Shown piece after piece: positions 3,686-48,863 of a stretch of DNA of 64,000 bases. This DNA comes from an uncultured Candidatus Saccharibacteria bacterium. Its GTDB lineage: Bacteria; Patescibacteriota; Dojkabacteria; SC72. The notes under the pieces were generated by a model. The model ran no database searches. It saw only the letters and a program-made list of their open reading frames with translations, and was not told the DNA's origin. Position 1 is the first letter of the stretch. Each line of letters begins with the position of its first letter. The position numbers were made by a program, and so were the translations under genes. The stretch spans positions 6,656 to 70,655 of the forward strand of contig CAZLLO010000001.1 in NCBI GenBank assembly GCA_964560525.1. The letters are read 5' to 3'.

Positions 3686-5010
3686 TGTATTTTCTTTGCA
3701 CTTAATTTAGTTAGGTTTTCCCATCTATTCCTAATTACCTCTGCATAAACAGGAGATTTTTCCATTAAATAGCATCTTCTTTTCATCTTCTCACAAGCAA
3801 TTAATGTAGATCCGCTTCCGCCAAACGGTTCTACTACTAAATCATTTCTTTTTGTAAGGACTTTGACATAAGGAATGAGTATTTCTAACGGTTTTGTCCC
3901 AAAGATTATCCCCTGTCCAGAGCTTTTCTCATCAGAAGCTTTGTATTCTATGAAGTCAGTTGGCTGTATTTTCTTCCCTTTCTCATATCCTTCCCAATGG
4001 GGCTTCCCAGATATGGCATACAAAGCTGTCTGGTACTCATTCTGAAGCAATTCTTCCTCGGGAGGAGTATTCATGACTTCCTCTTTGTATGAGGAACCAA
4101 CCATTGCTATATCGTGTTTAGAAAAGAATTTGTATTTAGCAGAAAATCCTTGGTGTCTATTTGGTATATGCCAAACAATCATGTTTTTTACCTTCCAATA
4201 CTTCTCCATTTCTCCCCATATAGTCCTAATATTTTTCCAATTTTCATATACAATGATGTGGAAATCCTCCTTTGCTACTTCTGAAATATTTTTCATCCAT
4301 AGTTCTGTGAAGTTATCTGGTAATACATCTGTCTCAAGGTACTTTCTGTCTCTTTTGTATCCGAATCCTTCCGTTGGTTTACCGCTCTTTTTCTTCCCAT
4401 GAAGATAGTCCAAAATATACGGAGGGTCCGTATAAACCATATCTGCTTTTTCACCATTCATTAACTTGAGCATGTCTTCTTGTACTGTAGAGTCTCCACA
4501 CATCATCCTATTTTCTCCTAATTGCCATATATCTCCTTTTTGAATTTCAATCTTCTTAATGTCTAGCTTGTTAAGCTCTTTTTTGAGATCAAATACTTCT
4601 GGGCTATTATCTTCCCAATCAAAGATTAGATCCAATTCCTCTGAGTTGAAACCTGTATCTGTTAAGAATTCCTCTGCAAAGCCAGCGAGAAGTTTAAAGT
4701 CGAATTCTCCTTGATTTTTGTTTAATCTAAGGTTTAATTCCTTCTCCTTCTCAATATCTGGAATATTTACATATACAACAGGCATTTCTTTTATACCTAA
4801 GGCTTTCGCTGCCTCTATACGCATATGTCCACCAATGACAATGTTCTGTCTACTAGGAGCATTGTTAACTATTGCTGGATCTACAATACCAAATCTTTGG
4901 ATACTGGTTTTGAGATCATTTAAAGCTTTTTCATCCCATTTCCTTGGGTTGTAGTCAGCTTTGACTAAGGCGTCTATTTGAACATAGACTGTTTGAAGTT
5001 TGTTCTTCAT
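3682..5010 (-). CDS. ParB-like nuclease domain fused to a beta-class DNA methyltransferase (N6-adenine or N4-cytosine).
   Basis: N-terminal ParBc-like block GGHMRIEAAKALG. Motif IV DPPY lies upstream of motif I EPFGGSGST, which is the beta-class order. ATGA start/stop overlap with the upstream gene. Confidence 0.75.
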   Translation of the reverse strand: MKNKLQTVYVQIDALVKADYNPRKWDEKALNDLKTSIQRFGIVDPAIVNNAPSRQNIVIGGHMRIEAAKALGIKEMPVVYVNIPDIEKEKELNLRLNKNQGEFDFKLLAGFAEEFLTDTGFNSEELDLIFDWEDNSPEVFDLKKELNKLDIKKIEIQKGDIWQLGENRMMCGDSTVQEDMLKLMNGEKADMVYTDPPYILDYLHGKKKSGKPTEGFGYKRDRKYLETDVLPDNFTELWMKNISEVAKEDFHIIVYENWKNIRTIWGEMEKYWKVKNMIVWHIPNRHQGFSAKYKFFSKHDIAMVGSSYKEEVMNTPPEEELLQNEYQTALYAISGKPHWEGYEKGKKIQPTDFIEYKASDEKSSGQGIIFGTKPLEILIPYVKVLTKRNDLVVEPFGGSGSTLIACEKMKRRCYLMEKSPVYAEVIRNRWENLTKLSAKKIQ

Positions 5011-43901: not shown

Positions 43902-44549
43902 ATGAAACTAGACTTCAATACACTCAAAGAACTCCACGAATACTATGCAGTAAATAATAGATGCGGATTAAGAAAGATTGCCACCCAACCAGTATATGAA
44001 ATAACTCCACCTACTTCAGGTATTGTATTCATAGGAGAAGCACCTGGTAAAAATGAGGACCTACAAGGTAAACCATTTGTTGGAGCAGCTGGTAAATTCT
44101 TAAATGAGTTACTACAAAGTATTGGATTCTCAAGAGAAGAGGTATATGTTTCTAATACTGTTAAATACAGACCTCCTGAAAACAGAGAACCAACCGATGA
44201 AGAAAAAGATAGCTGTAGAGTATGGTTAAATGCAGAATTACTATTTATTAAGCCCAAAATATTAATACCTCTAGGAAGACATGCATTTGAAAAATTTGTA
44301 CCTGGTGCAAAGATTTCTGCCTCTCATGGACAACCATTTTCACATCCAAGTGGTATTCCTGTTTTTGCTATGTATCATCCTGCTGTTGCTTTGTACAATC
44401 CTAATCTGAGAGATGTTTTGAAAGAGGATTTCCTCAAACTTAAAGACTATTTAGACAATGGTGGCAAACTAATGGAAAATGAAATTCCAGATACTTCTCC
44501 TTTTTCAAAAACTACGAAGAAAGATATTGATGATATCTTAAGTATGTAA
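43902..44549 (+). CDS. Uracil-DNA glycosylase, family 4-like.
   Basis: GEAPGKNED...GKPFVGAAG motif A. YHPA motif B. Confidence 0.7.
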   Translation: MKLDFNTLKELHEYYAVNNRCGLRKIATQPVYEITPPTSGIVFIGEAPGKNEDLQGKPFVGAAGKFLNELLQSIGFSREEVYVSNTVKYRPPENREPTDEEKDSCRVWLNAELLFIKPKILIPLGRHAFEKFVPGAKISASHGQPFSHPSGIPVFAMYHPAVALYNPNLRDVLKEDFLKLKDYLDNGGKLMENEIPDTSPFSKTTKKDIDDILSM

Positions 44550-45158
44550 TTCCATTTTGTCCCAAGTAGAATCATAGAAGAATTTCTCCATGACAGTTTC
44601 GTAGTTATCACATATCTCTTCCTTTCCAAACCATACCCCTATCTCCCTATTTGCATTCTCAACAGAATCAGAAGCATGTAACATCGTTCTTGTAGAGCGA
44701 GATATCATATCTGCCAAATCATATGAGTCTATGGAATAATCTGCACGAATGGTGCCAACATCACTAGCAGAAGGATTTGAGCTCCCCAATAACTTCCTCA
44801 CTCCAGATATTACTCCAGGTCCAGCAAGCACAATTACAACTATTGGCCCACAAGTTAGATATGCAATATTCTTTTTTCTAATAAGTTTACCCCTTTCTAA
44901 AGAATTCCACTTACTCATATCATCACCCCTGGCTATTGCTTCATTCTTCGCTTTCTCCTGTGTACCAATTAAATATTCCTCATCATCAATATAGTGTTCC
45001 CCTGCTTGCTCTTTTGTAGCATTTAACATCTTCATTGCAACAATTTTGTAACCTTTCCTCTCAAATCTAGATAATATCTCTCCCGCTATCTGTCTCTGAA
45101 GCACATCTGGCTTCATAATAATTAGGGTTCTCTCTTCTGCAAGTTTAGGTCTATTCAT
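44538..45158 (-). CDS. ndk: Nucleoside diphosphate kinase with an internal insertion.
   Basis: RTLIIMKPD N-terminal motif. LHASDS region (NxxHxSD). 206 aa against the usual ~145. Confidence 0.6.
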   Translation of the reverse strand: MNRPKLAEERTLIIMKPDVLQRQIAGEILSRFERKGYKIVAMKMLNATKEQAGEHYIDDEEYLIGTQEKAKNEAIARGDDMSKWNSLERGKLIRKKNIAYLTCGPIVVIVLAGPGVISGVRKLLGSSNPSASDVGTIRADYSIDSYDLADMISRSTRTMLHASDSVENANREIGVWFGKEEICDNYETVMEKFFYDSTWDKMELHT

Positions 45159-45205
45159 GTAGCTAGATTAGTTAAAATATTAGATAATACAAGGATATCA
45201 GAATA

Positions 45206-46834
45206 ATGAAGAACTTTAAACCCGAAAATTACAAAATTGAATTAAAAGAAATATTTTCCTTAATCAAGGCTTCAACCAATTGGAGAACAGATACATTACA
45301 AACCATATTAAAGAAATATCCAAAGGATGGGAACAAACTCTTTAGACATGATGAATTAGTAAATGGATACGAATATCTTGGATCAAAGGACAAGACAGTG
45401 GAAGAAAGAATTAGATTAAAACCTACCAGAACTAACTCAGGTGTAGCTACAGTTACAGTACTCTCTAAACCCTACCCTTGCCCTGGTAGATGTATATTCT
45501 GTCCTAATGACCCAAATATGCCCAAGAGCTATATATCCTCCGAACCGGGGGCACAGAGAGCTCTAAGCAATTGCTTTGATCCATATGCTCAGGTATACAA
45601 CAGATTAATTGCTTTAAAGAATATTGGACATAATATTGAGAAAGTAGAATTACTTGTATTAGGGGGTTCTTGGTCTGCATATCAAGAGGAATACAAGGTA
45701 TCATTTGTTAAAGCTTGTTTTGATGCTATGAATGATATACAGAAAGATACTCAAGGATATATACAACCTAGAACCGAATTACCATTGGCCACTGTGAATG
45801 AATTGTTTGAAGCGCAACATATCAATGAGAGTGCATATTGTAGGAATGTTGGGTTGGTGTTTGAAACTAGGCCAGATTTAATCACCGAGGAAGAAGTTGT
45901 TAATCTTCGAAAGCTTGGTGCTACTAAGATACAGATTGGTATTCAATCTTTAGATGACAAGATTATTGATGCTAACCATATTGGTAGACCTACGAAAGAT
46001 GTTAAGAACGCAATTAAATTACTTAGACTTGGTGGTTTCAAGATTCATGGGCATTGGATGCCTAATTTGTATATGTCTAATGTTAAGAGGGATATTAATG
46101 ATTACAAGAAGCTTTGGAAGAAGGATTTCTGTCCTGATGAATTAAAGATATATCCTACTTCCATTGTTCCTAATACTTTGCTTTTTAAATTGTATGAGGA
46201 GGGTAAGTTCAAGCCATATACCGAGGATGAGTTGTTAATGGTTTTGTCTGAGACTATGCCTACTACTCCTAGGTATTGTAGATTATCCAGAATTATTAGG
46301 GATATTCCTTCTGAAGAGATTGTAGCTGGGAACAAGAAAACCAATCTTAGACAGATTGCTGAGGAGTTGATTGAGAAGAAGGGGAAAAGGATGAATGACA
46401 TTAGGAGTAGAGAGATAAAGAATGAGAGGGTTAGTTGGGAAGATTTGGTATTGGAGATTATTAGGTATGATACTTCTACTGGGAAGGAGTTTTTTCTTTC
46501 TTACAAGACTAAGGATACGGATAGGATTTGTGGATTTTTGAGGTTGTCTATACCAGAGAAAAAATACAGAAAAGAAAATTTCATTGAGGAGTTACGTGAT
46601 TCTTCTATAATTAGAGAGGTTCATGTGTATGGTAGGGTTATGAGTTTGGATATTGATAGTTCTGGAGAATCTCAACATTTGGGATTGGGCAAAAAGCTTA
46701 TTGAGATGGCTGAGGAGATTACTAAAAAGGAGGGGATACATAGGATAGTGGTTATTTCTGCTATTGGGACTAGAGAATATTACAAGAAGAGAGGATTTGA
46801 AATGGGGAGATTGTATATGGAGAAGGAGATATGA
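45206..46834 (+). CDS. elp3: Elp3-family radical SAM / GNAT acetyltransferase (tRNA wobble-uridine modification).
   Basis: PCPGRCIFCPND radical-SAM cluster. C-terminal GNAT region. 542 aa. Confidence 0.75.
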   Translation: MKNFKPENYKIELKEIFSLIKASTNWRTDTLQTILKKYPKDGNKLFRHDELVNGYEYLGSKDKTVEERIRLKPTRTNSGVATVTVLSKPYPCPGRCIFCPNDPNMPKSYISSEPGAQRALSNCFDPYAQVYNRLIALKNIGHNIEKVELLVLGGSWSAYQEEYKVSFVKACFDAMNDIQKDTQGYIQPRTELPLATVNELFEAQHINESAYCRNVGLVFETRPDLITEEEVVNLRKLGATKIQIGIQSLDDKIIDANHIGRPTKDVKNAIKLLRLGGFKIHGHWMPNLYMSNVKRDINDYKKLWKKDFCPDELKIYPTSIVPNTLLFKLYEEGKFKPYTEDELLMVLSETMPTTPRYCRLSRIIRDIPSEEIVAGNKKTNLRQIAEELIEKKGKRMNDIRSREIKNERVSWEDLVLEIIRYDTSTGKEFFLSYKTKDTDRICGFLRLSIPEKKYRKENFIEELRDSSIIREVHVYGRVMSLDIDSSGESQHLGLGKKLIEMAEEITKKEGIHRIVVISAIGTREYYKKRGFEMGRLYMEKEI

Positions 46835-47352
46835 GTATGGTAGACAGAAATCTAGACAAGTTCGAAGAAAGAACAAGGGTGTATTTTGAAGAAAAAGGTA
46901 TATATCTAAAAAGAATCGGTTGTGATTCAAAAAAGACTCCAGATTTTGAAAATTCTTATTGTCTTGTAGAAACTAAACATTATGATGGTAAAGAAAAGAT
47001 TTCTGATACTATCGAATTTGACCCCACTTTTAATGCGATTCTAGGGCATTGTGAAAAGGCTGCAAAACAATTCGAGGCATACGATCCATCACATAAGAAA
47101 ATCCATCTACTAACACTCTTTTCTTCTGAATTGGAAAAAGAAGATATTTTATCTGTCTTTTCAGGATGTTTAATTCCAGGCATACAAAACATAAGTTGGA
47201 AAAAATTGGAACCGCGGCTTTCTTTAAGATACTCTGAACAAATTGATGCAATTTTATTATTTCGTACAATTGATTCTTCGAAACCAATTATTTATTCAAA
47301 AGATAGAGGGCACAAATTTGTACAAGAGCATTTGCATATACTCAGTTCTTAA
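46831..47352 (+). CDS. Hjc-like PD-(D/E)xK nuclease-fold protein (candidate Holliday-junction-resolvase-like).
   Basis: FEERTRVYFEEKGIYLKRIGCDSKKTPDFE..YCLVETK parallels the archaeal Hjc block [37 protein letters not shown]. ATGA overlap with the elp3 stop. Confidence 0.4.
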   Translation: MSMVDRNLDKFEERTRVYFEEKGIYLKRIGCDSKKTPDFENSYCLVETKHYDGKEKISDTIEFDPTFNAILGHCEKAAKQFEAYDPSHKKIHLLTLFSSELEKEDILSVFSGCLIPGIQNISWKKLEPRLSLRYSEQIDAILLFRTIDSSKPIIYSKDRGHKFVQEHLHILSS

Positions 47353-47371
47353 CTATATACTATTAACATCT

Positions 47372-47785
47372 ATGCAAAATAGGGACACCAACAAAACAGA
47401 AGAAACTAGTAAAATAACAAAGCTGAAATATGTTGAATGTCCAAATTGCAAATCATTATTCGACAATAAAGAAAAATATGCCGATTGGAAAACTTTCATA
47501 GGTATAAATAAATTTCTTTGTAAGAATTGCAAGATGGAATTTAAATATCCCTCTCATCGAAGGTATGGGCTTGATTTAATAATTGGAATTATTCTTTGGA
47601 TTTGCTCTGCAAGTATCCCCACTACCTCGGGCGACATCCTAGCCATTGCGGCTCTGTCTTGCTTGGGAATAGCAGGTTTTTTATTAACACTTCAAGGAAT
47701 ACTGGGCTTGATAGAAAATTCCTCTTTGAAATCTAAGAATCCCGAATGGGAAAATAGATTTCACAATACAAGATATTCAAAATAA
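47372..47785 (+). CDS. Zinc-ribbon plus 2-TM small membrane protein.
   Basis: CPNC...CKNC, then hydrophobic helices. Start taken at the internal Met after the upstream gene stop. Confidence 0.4.
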   Translation: MQNRDTNKTEETSKITKLKYVECPNCKSLFDNKEKYADWKTFIGINKFLCKNCKMEFKYPSHRRYGLDLIIGIILWICSASIPTTSGDILAIAALSCLGIAGFLLTLQGILGLIENSSLKSKNPEWENRFHNTRYSK

Positions 47786-47804
47786 AGAAGCACCCCTTCA
47801 ATCC

Positions 47805-48689
47805 CTATAAAGAAACAATCTTCTTATCTGATAACCATCTTCCATTTATAGCTTTCCATTCTCTATCCATCCCTTGTATAGACTTCATACTTGGGTCCCA
47901 AAAATGCGATATTAATCTAAAATCCGTTTTACTTAAATCCGAAAATGCCATATATAAATCCATATCTCCCCTGGTTAACAAGCTTTCTGAAATAGAGTCA
48001 TTAAAATCAAAGTATATTGGCTCTACCCAACCCTTGCTTATTTGATATGCGAAGTTAGCATATATAGAGCCAACTGATTCTGAGCTTAAGAAAAGATATT
48101 GATACTTCAAATTTTCATTCGCATATAAAATAATTCCTACTTGTAATTTGCAGTTTTTAGGATTTATGAAATTATCATAATCTTCACATATTATATCTGA
48201 GCGTACATATTCATTTATCACATAGTCATTAATCTGCAATGTACACAAAGGACAGTAAGGTGGATTTTGAAGTTTTTCTTTATCTATCTCTTCACACTTT
48301 ATTGTATATTGATCACCCCCAATATCCCATGTGTCTGAAACAACACTTCCAATAGTAATATCATATTGGGGGATATCAATAGCTTTCGGTATTTCTATAT
48401 ATCCGTTCGGTTTCCATTCCCCATTTATGAAAACATCTGCGTCTTTGTAGTATGGTTCATCTTCCTTATCAAGATTAGAAATATCTGCAGTACCTAACAC
48501 AAGAGGTTGTATGTTCTCTTTAATTTGAGATTCAGAATAATGGTTTCTTAATGAATTATCTACCAATTCATAGCAGAACATTCCTATTACATAAAGCATC
48601 AAGGGAAATGGAATTATTAAAAACAAGACAACTCCAACTCTTTTTAACTTTTCATTTACCTTTGTAGAAAAGAATGGTGTCTTATTCAT
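47805..48689 (-). CDS. Membrane-anchored hypothetical protein.
   Basis: 294 aa with an N-terminal TM segment. Confidence 0.45.
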   Translation of the reverse strand: MNKTPFFSTKVNEKLKRVGVVLFLIIPFPLMLYVIGMFCYELVDNSLRNHYSESQIKENIQPLVLGTADISNLDKEDEPYYKDADVFINGEWKPNGYIEIPKAIDIPQYDITIGSVVSDTWDIGGDQYTIKCEEIDKEKLQNPPYCPLCTLQINDYVINEYVRSDIICEDYDNFINPKNCKLQVGIILYANENLKYQYLFLSSESVGSIYANFAYQISKGWVEPIYFDFNDSISESLLTRGDMDLYMAFSDLSKTDFRLISHFWDPSMKSIQGMDREWKAINGRWLSDKKIVSL

Positions 48690-48753
48690 TGATATAATAT
48701 ATACCAGGAATAGGATCTGGGCAAGAATCGTTGAATATGAAGAATATATAATC

Positions 48754-48826
48754 TGAGCACGCGGGGACTCGAACCCCGAACCAAGCGATTAAGAGTCGCT
48801 TGCTCTACCAATTGAGCTACGTGCCC
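48754..48826 (-). tRNA. tRNA-Lys (anticodon CTT).
   Basis: Hand-folded cloverleaf of GGGCACGTAGCTCAATTGGTAGAGCAAGCGACTCTTAATCGCTTGGTTCGGGGTTCGAGTCCCCGCGTGCTCA. 7-bp acceptor stem, GTTCGAGT T-loop, anticodon loop CT-CTT-AA. Confidence 0.85.
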
Positions 48827-48863
48827 ACAAACAATGAGTATAATATCACTTTTAATACCATTT

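Follow-up and report, generated by a model that had tools for sequence, protein, structure and literature searches.

Genes at the elp3 locus and the variable slot behind elp3

The window analysed here is the whole 64,000-nucleotide (nt) stretch of contig CAZLLO010000001.1, from an uncultured member of the Dojkabacteria, and the subject of this report is a nuclease-like open reading frame (ORF) of 173 amino acids (aa) that lies directly 3' of an elp3 gene within it. A first-pass annotation, made from the letters alone, had described the two genes as a radical-SAM/GNAT elp3 translationally coupled to an Hjc-like PD-(D/E)xK protein, and had found the pairing of an archaeal-type resolvase with a tRNA-modification enzyme unexpected. 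Both ORFs (45206..46834, +, 542 aa, and 46831..47352, +, 173 aa) are present as described. The genes and landmarks of the locus are listed below; L numbers denote the loci used for comparison.

44538-45158, minus strand: nucleoside diphosphate kinase (NDK) gene between UDG and elp3, from the neighbour scan
45206..46834, plus strand: elp3, a full-length radical-SAM/GNAT gene for the tRNA U34 carboxymethylation enzyme, 542 aa, assigned from TIGR01211, Pfam domains and solved relatives
45479..45502, plus strand: codons of the radical-SAM cluster cysteines of Elp3, C92-x3-C96-x2-C99, read from the translation
46821..48742, no strand: variable segment of about 1.9 kb with no counterpart in close relatives, delimited by blastn against L010
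46837..47352, plus strand: likeliest extent of the nuclease coding sequence, 171 aa (173 aa from 46831), from the ATG common to both lineages that carry it
47372..47785, plus strand: 137-aa ORF, 19 nt 3' of the nuclease gene, with two CxxC pairs (zinc-ribbon-like) and a hydrophobic C-terminus; weak zinc-ribbon and MpPF26 matches
47805..48689, minus strand: 294-aa ORF, third gene of the segment, function unassigned; no Pfam, PADLOC or PHROG match
48753..48827, minus strand: tRNA-Lys(CTT), the conserved right-hand landmark of the slot (ARAGORN; Rfam 71.5 bits)

Judged by its sequence, the upstream ORF is a genuine tRNA-modifying Elp3, as had been proposed. It scored 483.7 bits against TIGR01211 (curated cutoff 350; profile positions 34-522 of 522), carries the Radical_SAM (PF04055), Radical_SAM_C (PF16199) and GNAT Acetyltransf_1 (PF00583) domains above Pfam cutoffs together with the cysteine motif, and has its best solved relatives in archaeal and Dehalococcoides Elp3 (6iaz, E 1e-92; 5l7j, E 1.6e-87). 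The full-length radical-SAM plus KAT/GNAT architecture is shared with the Elp3 proteins of Dehalococcoides mccartyi and Methanocaldococcus infernus (5l7j, 6ia8), from which the window protein shows no notable difference; it is an ordinary Elp3. Clustering at 90% identity groups it with WS6/Dojkabacteria proteins, 21 members in all. Cluster members named as candidate division WS6, together with the metagenome-assembled Dojkabacteria genomes of the related loci, assign the window to a WS6/Dojkabacteria genome of the candidate phyla radiation.

The pairing of this gene with the nuclease is incidental, a lineage-specific insertion in a variable slot. Elp3 was surveyed with one genome per species, which gave 153 Elp3 relatives, and 80 loci were kept (Dojkabacteria/Patescibacteria at 50-94% identity and many Chloroflexota at 44-50%). 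A hidden Markov model (HMM) of the nuclease family found no member within 4 kb of Elp3 at any of these other-species loci (0/80), including those whose Elp3 is 86-94% identical to that of the window, and Elp3 is absent from all seven of the other genomic contexts of the nuclease family. With these counts and the variability of the slot, the pairing is not conserved in related genomes and the significance first attached to it does not hold.

Relatives with a 90-94% identical Elp3 (L010, L011, L023 and a 137-kb contig) have the flanking genes in the same order as the window: FAD oxidoreductase, polysaccharide deacetylase, UDG, Elp3, then, beyond the slot, tRNA-Lys(CTT), a protein of about 720 aa and RecO. 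The 3' side of Elp3 in these relatives is occupied by a convergent Peptidase_S51 gene and a 192- or 282-aa gene. A blastn alignment of the window with L010 ends at 46820 and resumes at 48743, which places the left edge of the segment inside the last elp3 codons and the right edge at the tRNA-Lys 3' end. Because the segment begins inside those codons, the Elp3 C-termini differ, ending in LYMEKEI in the window, LYMGKLL in L010 and LYMGKEIGIW in L003.

The tRNA-Lys(CTT) stands in the same place in L010, L011, L023-L027, L030, L033 and L036, and the order UDG, NDK, Elp3, slot, tRNA-Lys and 717-aa gene is kept in more than 20 species, with RecO beyond. L025 and L030 have nothing in the slot itself. 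In other loci its content is an ASCH-like 119-aa gene (L024), an NYN-domain gene (L026), a GNAT gene (L033), uncharacterised genes (L027 and L036), Peptidase_S51 plus another gene (L010, 5619-6931, and L023) or, in the window and in L003-L008, the trio of 173-, 137- and 294-aa genes. The slot between elp3 and tRNA-Lys(CTT) is an insertion hotspot, hypervariable in Dojkabacteria.

The tight junction between elp3 and the nuclease gene, on which the proposal of translational coupling had been built, contains two further features.

46823..46828, plus strand: Shine-Dalgarno-like AAGGAG in the last elp3 codons, conserved in L003-L008
46831..46834, plus strand: ATGA in which the elp3 stop and the first in-frame ATG of the 173-aa ORF overlap, strain-specific by comparison with L003-L008

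The window reads AAGGAGATATGAGTATGGTAGAC, in which the ATG at 46831-46833 overlaps the elp3 TGA at 46832-46834. L003-L008 form the only other lineage with the elp3-nuclease order, at about 82% nt identity; there the first ATG is absent (ATAGGAATATGGTAG), and ATAGGAATATGG is the sequence found where the window has its ATGA overlap. The nuclease of that lineage starts at the ATG equivalent to window position 46837, its gene sharing 7 nt with an elp3 that is a little longer. In the window the AAGGAG lies 8 nt upstream of ATG 46837 and 2 nt only upstream of ATG 46831, which makes 46837 the likelier start; the nuclease gene is separated from elp3 by a 2-nt gap from the one start and overlaps it by 4 nt from the other. 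The ATGA overlap claimed for the window is real, but it is lacking in L003-L008, and the start shared by the two lineages is 46837. As the genes abut tightly in both, coupling is plausible, although the junction as it stands would be a feature of one lineage.

Scanning for terminator-like sites found 3 in the region against 2.3 expected, and none between elp3 and the nuclease ORF, so read-through from elp3 with coupled or re-initiated translation is plausible. Promoter-like sites were not above chance in the 4.5-kb region (23 found, 19.1 expected). With both scans at chance level, co-transcription of the two genes is plausible from their geometry only. The best sigma-70-like match of the region (46584-46611, +; TTGAGG, 16-nt spacer, TATAAT; 10/12) falls within the 3' end of elp3, some 220 nt ahead of the nuclease ORF, and could be an internal promoter, in a scan that performed at chance level.

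Several further observations concern the locus. The NDK gene occupies its position in 22 Dojkabacteria loci and is absent in the L010/L011/L023 lineage, where UDG directly abuts elp3. The occupants found directly 3' of elp3 on the same strand in L024 and L026 have nucleic-acid-related domains. An integrated element at the tRNA-Lys was considered and rejected, as the scans showed no direct repeat copying the 3' end of the tRNA, no inverted repeats of note, no GC anomaly and no recombinase in the window.

Elp3 is widespread in Dojkabacteria with its gene order kept (about 30 species-level loci, 50-94% identity), and is common in Chloroflexota outside Dehalococcoides (Anaerolineae, Ardenticatenaceae, Promineifilaceae; 44-50% identity). 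Single matches were found in metagenome-assembled genomes (MAGs) labelled Myxococcales, Gammaproteobacteria/Pseudomonadales and WWE3. A 2020 review (PMC7663514) described bacterial Elp3 as confined to Dehalococcoides; conservation across Dojkabacteria and frequent occurrence in several Chloroflexota lineages make the distribution wider than that picture. The nt identity of elp3 between the window (45202-46820) and L010 (4000-5618) is 90%, and that of flanking genes in the same order is 69-77%; unusually strong constraint or recent recombinational exchange among WS6 lineages could account for this. The GC skew of the 3' third of elp3 (46200-47000) is 0.46-0.58 in 400-nt windows, a strong coding-strand excess of G over C that is far above that of neighbouring genes.

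A small family in the PD-(D/E)xK superfamily

Searches of Pfam, NCBIfam, PADLOC and PHROGs assigned the 173-aa protein to no family beyond chance-level matches. OmdA (E 0.03) and mercaptopyruvate sulfurtransferase (E 0.004, far below its cutoff) were set aside as such, and a single-sequence search of the PDB returned only the same sulfurtransferase stretch (E 0.12), which was taken as noise. A word-indexed search of 5.8 billion proteins recovered the nuclease itself and two others, 91% and 45% identical to it. When 1.84 billion cluster representatives were scanned exhaustively with a HMMER profile, 27 proteins matched at E <= 1e-3, 7 of them at E <= 1e-10, and a second profile search added a subfamily of proteins of about 200 aa. 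One named member comes from a Patescibacteria MAG, and a distant member is a hypothetical protein of Paenibacillus. Weak Pfam matches to HSDR_N came from two members of the family.

Conservation was counted in two alignments, A2 (28 sequences, mean column identity 22%) and A3 (26 sequences). The residues that stand out are encoded as follows.

46864..46869, plus strand: E12-E13, the conserved acidic residue of helix alpha1; E in 25/26 of A3, with the conserved E one residue earlier, at E12, in A2
46939..46944, plus strand: P37-D38, the 'PD' of the motif; P in 26/28 and D in 27/28 of A2, 25/26 each in A3
46969..46977, plus strand: E47-T48-K49, the '(D/E)xK' on strand beta3 (model residues 44-50); E47 and K49 invariant in 28/28 and 26/26
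47065..47070, plus strand: K79-Q80 of helix alpha2, in the signature KAxKQF; invariant in A3, K or R in 22/28 and Q in 24/28 of A2

The block quoted in the first-pass annotation (EER..FEEKG..R..DSKKTPDFE..YCLVETK) is present in the ORF, and because P37, D38, E47 and K49 are kept across 28 homologues at 22% mean identity, it is more than a chance resemblance. The core is followed by DPTFN, KAxKQF and DPxH, so that the full family signature reads E..PD..ExK..DPTFN..KAxKQF..DPxH.

An AlphaFold2 model was built from a 26-sequence alignment (pLDDT 80.4, pTM 0.80). It runs from a helix at residues 10-21 through strands at 26-27, 39-40 and 44-50, a helix at 65-84 and a strand at 91-97 to an extra C-terminal alpha/beta part of about 70 residues. 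The core order is alpha-beta-beta-beta-alpha-beta, in which D38 leads into strand 2 and strand 3 carries E47-x-K49. Its structural neighbours are members of the PD-(D/E)xK superfamily, with figures for solved proteins of 8.5 for XisH (2okf), 7.8 for BsmI, 7.0 for AF1548, 6.8 for NucC, 6.6 for NgoMIV, 6.5 for Can2, 6.0 for HamA and 5.8 each for NucS and SfsA. A Foldseek search with the model against PDB and viral structures found nothing significant. By sequence, the family profile matched SfsA and a VRR-NUC-type nuclease best in the PDB, at E 0.068 and 0.16, so that both fall short of the threshold; each aligns PD to PD/ID and EVK to EVK.

The predicted PD-(D/E)xK core is supported by the fold of the model, by D38 in 27/28 sequences, E47 and K49 in 28/28, and by the conserved glutamate of helix 1. 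Neither a lack of fold support nor a loss of conservation at the D/E/K positions, the two outcomes named beforehand as speaking against such a core, was seen. With the superfamily the protein shares the core order, the helix-1 acid, the strand-2 D and the strand-3 ExK. It differs in standing outside the named families of Pfam, NCBIfam, PADLOC and PHROGs, and in having its own signature and C-terminal extension. On alignment and model together, the 173-aa protein is the founder of a small unnamed family in the PD-(D/E)xK superfamily, with a catalytic constellation that appears intact.

Two known groups of similar proteins were compared and rejected as homes for it. The toxin domains of CdiA-CT proteins (4g6v, 4zqu, 4g6u, 5j4a) share 10-20% sequence identity with the nuclease; they form the C-terminal part of secreted CdiA proteins of very large size, which come with an immunity gene of their own, whereas the window protein is a free-standing cytoplasmic ORF and the 137-aa gene downstream does not co-vary with it, so that membership of the CdiA-CT or polymorphic toxins was not supported. 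A type II restriction endonuclease was set aside because there is no methyltransferase among the scanned window neighbours (UDG, NDK, Elp3 and the 137- and 294-aa proteins).

Contexts of the family and competing explanations

The seven contexts of family members away from the window lineage are varied. Two members lie directly upstream of large serine recombinases (L012 and L015/L016), which are divergent, with only 19.6% mutual identity. L019 has a HinfI-type restriction-modification (R-M) system near the member, a complete N6_N4_Mtase and HinfI pair of its own, and L022 has type I HsdR and a YgjP-like protein. The neighbours are uncharacterised genes in L021, sigma-70 and PNPOx genes in L017, and a 421-aa protein without Pfam match and a tRNA-Lys(TTT) in L001. 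In an all-against-all BLASTP of the flanking proteins, the two serine recombinases were the only neighbour shared across family members.

Two of these loci hold further points of detail. The member in L001 (883-3015) is the 45%-identical homologue (P0003); the tRNA-Lys near it, anticodon TTT, is on the opposite strand with the 421-aa gene between, and an ORF beyond looks RNase HII-like by eye. In L021, a 160-aa ORF two genes upstream of the member (3998-4486) has a weak family-HMM match (E 0.002) and may be a divergent paralogue in the same cluster.

The explanation that we consider probable, though well short of certain, is that the nuclease arrived by insertion in the slot and is an accessory and probably active PD-(D/E)xK enzyme that has no functional partnership with Elp3. 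The short slot between the elp3 stop and the tRNA-Lys 3' end would gather different accessory genes in each species, and in the window lineage would have received the three-gene segment of about 1.9 kb, whose first gene encodes a cytoplasmic protein of about 171 aa from the nuclease family. Since the insertion junction falls within the last elp3 codons, the nuclease gene would borrow the ribosome-binding site inside elp3, and it is probably read from the elp3 transcript. This shared expression would be a matter of arrangement only and implies no functional partnership.

The protein itself is predicted to be a divalent-metal-dependent (Mg2+) endonuclease. E12/E13 of helix 1, D38 of strand 2 and E47 of strand 3 would bind Mg2+, K49 would activate, stabilise or position the water that attacks, and the phosphate of the substrate would be contacted by K79/Q80 from the next helix. 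DNA is the most likely substrate. A role in defence, or as an accessory of a selfish or mobile element, is suggested by the sporadic distribution and by the neighbours (variable regions, and R-M genes or serine recombinases in 4/8 contexts), and a core function in repair or tRNA modification is unlikely.

Several points weigh against this explanation. The association with defence or mobile genes rests on 4/8 genomic contexts, no match to the nuclease was found in phage or plasmid records, and PADLOC at E <= 1 gave 0 families for the 173-, 137/180- and 294-aa proteins. The segment is neither flanked by att-like repeats nor anomalous in composition. Toxicity would be expected of a lone, unregulated nuclease, and neither an inhibitor nor a partner for modification was found. 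The clustering of the putative catalytic residues in the model is assumed from topology.

XisH, the fdxN element excision-controlling factor (2okf), is among the structural neighbours, and the family could act with large serine recombinases as an XisH-like accessory factor that controls excision or integration; the copy in the window would then be what remains of such an element. The members of L012 and L015/L016, directly upstream of such recombinases, favour this, and the low identity of the two recombinases makes the co-occurrences independent; XisH and XisI are also treated alongside serine recombinases in titles of the literature. No member of the family has an XisH match in Pfam, however, and there was no profile match to XisH, no XisI-like partner among the window neighbours, no recombinase by tblastn anywhere in the 64-kb window and none in 6/8 contexts. 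The fully conserved catalytic residues suggest a working nuclease rather than a regulatory scaffold. We regard the XisH-like role as unlikely, while giving it some weight.

The second and third genes of the segment bear on whether the nuclease has a partner. The 137-aa protein has four homologues in total, and among 106 loci the 294-aa ORF has counterparts in L003-L008 only. A module of two genes, for toxin and immunity or for defence, made of the nuclease and the 137-aa zinc-ribbon/membrane protein would fit their common strand, their 19-nt gap and their joint retention in L003-L008, and would supply the restraint that a solitary nuclease would need. Yet the two distant 137-aa homologues (L103-L106) are in unrelated contexts with no nuclease family member nearby, which indicates that the 137-aa gene is not a dedicated partner; the nuclease family is without the 137-aa gene in 7/8 contexts, and neither protein matches PADLOC. 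Such a module is improbable.

The distant homologue in L103 (1355-4142) is 58% identical and is followed 2 nt later by a 155-aa ORF without Pfam match. It stands two genes from a DpnII-MboI-type restriction-enzyme gene, which is another variable or defence-like neighbourhood.

The Hjc-like label would make the nuclease a bacterial counterpart of Hjc, or another structure-specific repair nuclease serving recombination. Hjc (1gef, 1hh1, 1ob8, 2wcw) and the nuclease have the superfamily and the order of catalytic residues in common, the spacing of the E, D and ExK tetrad is similar, and an alignment of the N-terminal block is possible both by eye and with hhalign; nearby genes include UDG and RecO. 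Family membership was nevertheless rejected on four tests. Pfam Hjc had no match at E <= 1 among 28 family members, the family profile found no Hjc chain in the PDB at E <= 10, Hjc was not the nearest structural neighbour of the model, and hhalign of the family with Pyrococcus furiosus Hjc (a query sequence identical to 1gef_A) gave a probability of 17.4% over 39 columns, in which PD aligns with VD, D to D, and EVK with EVK. BLASTP of the nuclease with Hjc produced no meaningful alignment. The nuclease is about 50 residues longer, with the extra C-terminal alpha/beta part. With 27 family representatives it is distributed sporadically, like an accessory gene; a resolvase would be expected widely in the lineage as part of its core. 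Within 4 kb of Elp3, the nuclease gene is absent from sister species that keep the order of UDG, Elp3 and RecO. The resemblance to Hjc is a generic superfamily motif, the archaeal-type resolvase label is not upheld, and a repair nuclease of this kind is very improbable.

PD-(D/E)xK folds are known to be recruited to non-catalytic roles, and the protein might bind or regulate without cleaving, or the ORF might not be expressed; the number of promoter-like sites, close to expectation, would be compatible with the latter. The catalytic tetrad is, however, invariant or nearly so among sequences that share only about 20% identity, which argues for selection on catalysis, and the ORF is intact, with 91% protein identity to the L003-L008 lineage at 82% nt identity. 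We hold a non-cleaving or silent product for less probable again.

Least probable of all is a nuclease tied to Elp3, a CdiA-CT-type tRNA-anticodon nuclease licensed or blocked by the cm5U34-type modification with coupling fixing the ratio of the two proteins: the genes do abut tightly in two lineages, and occupants of the same slot in the same orientation have RNA-related domains (NYN in L026, ASCH-like in L024), but the gene stands at 0/80 other-species Elp3 loci, Elp3 is missing from 7/8 family contexts, an insertion boundary within the final elp3 codons forms the junction, and the adjacent tRNA-Lys, with anticodon CTT and hence C34, is not an Elp3 substrate.

Meaning for the family and for Dojkabacteria

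Under the preferred explanation, of an accessory nuclease inserted in the slot, the odd-looking pairing of the two genes is an artefact of insertion at a variable position of the genome, and with the protein the very large PD-(D/E)xK superfamily gains a further small, uncharacterised family; as it stands, this matters little. An Elp3-dependent action on tRNA or a recombinase-cofactor role would, if true, raise its interest substantially, and both are unlikely on present evidence. In the first case the tight junction would be a newly captured coupling, with functional meaning, of a tRNA-modification enzyme with a nuclease that senses the modification, and would be the analogue in bacteria of the Elongator-dependent tRNA toxins; in the second, which is likewise unlikely, the family would represent XisH-like cofactors of a new class, serving large serine recombinases in bacteria of the candidate phyla radiation (CPR). 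What the analysis provides is a defined signature and a confident model for a protein family so far without annotation, and, in the elp3-tRNA-Lys(CTT) hotspot, a marker that is usable for strain-level accessory content in Dojkabacteria.

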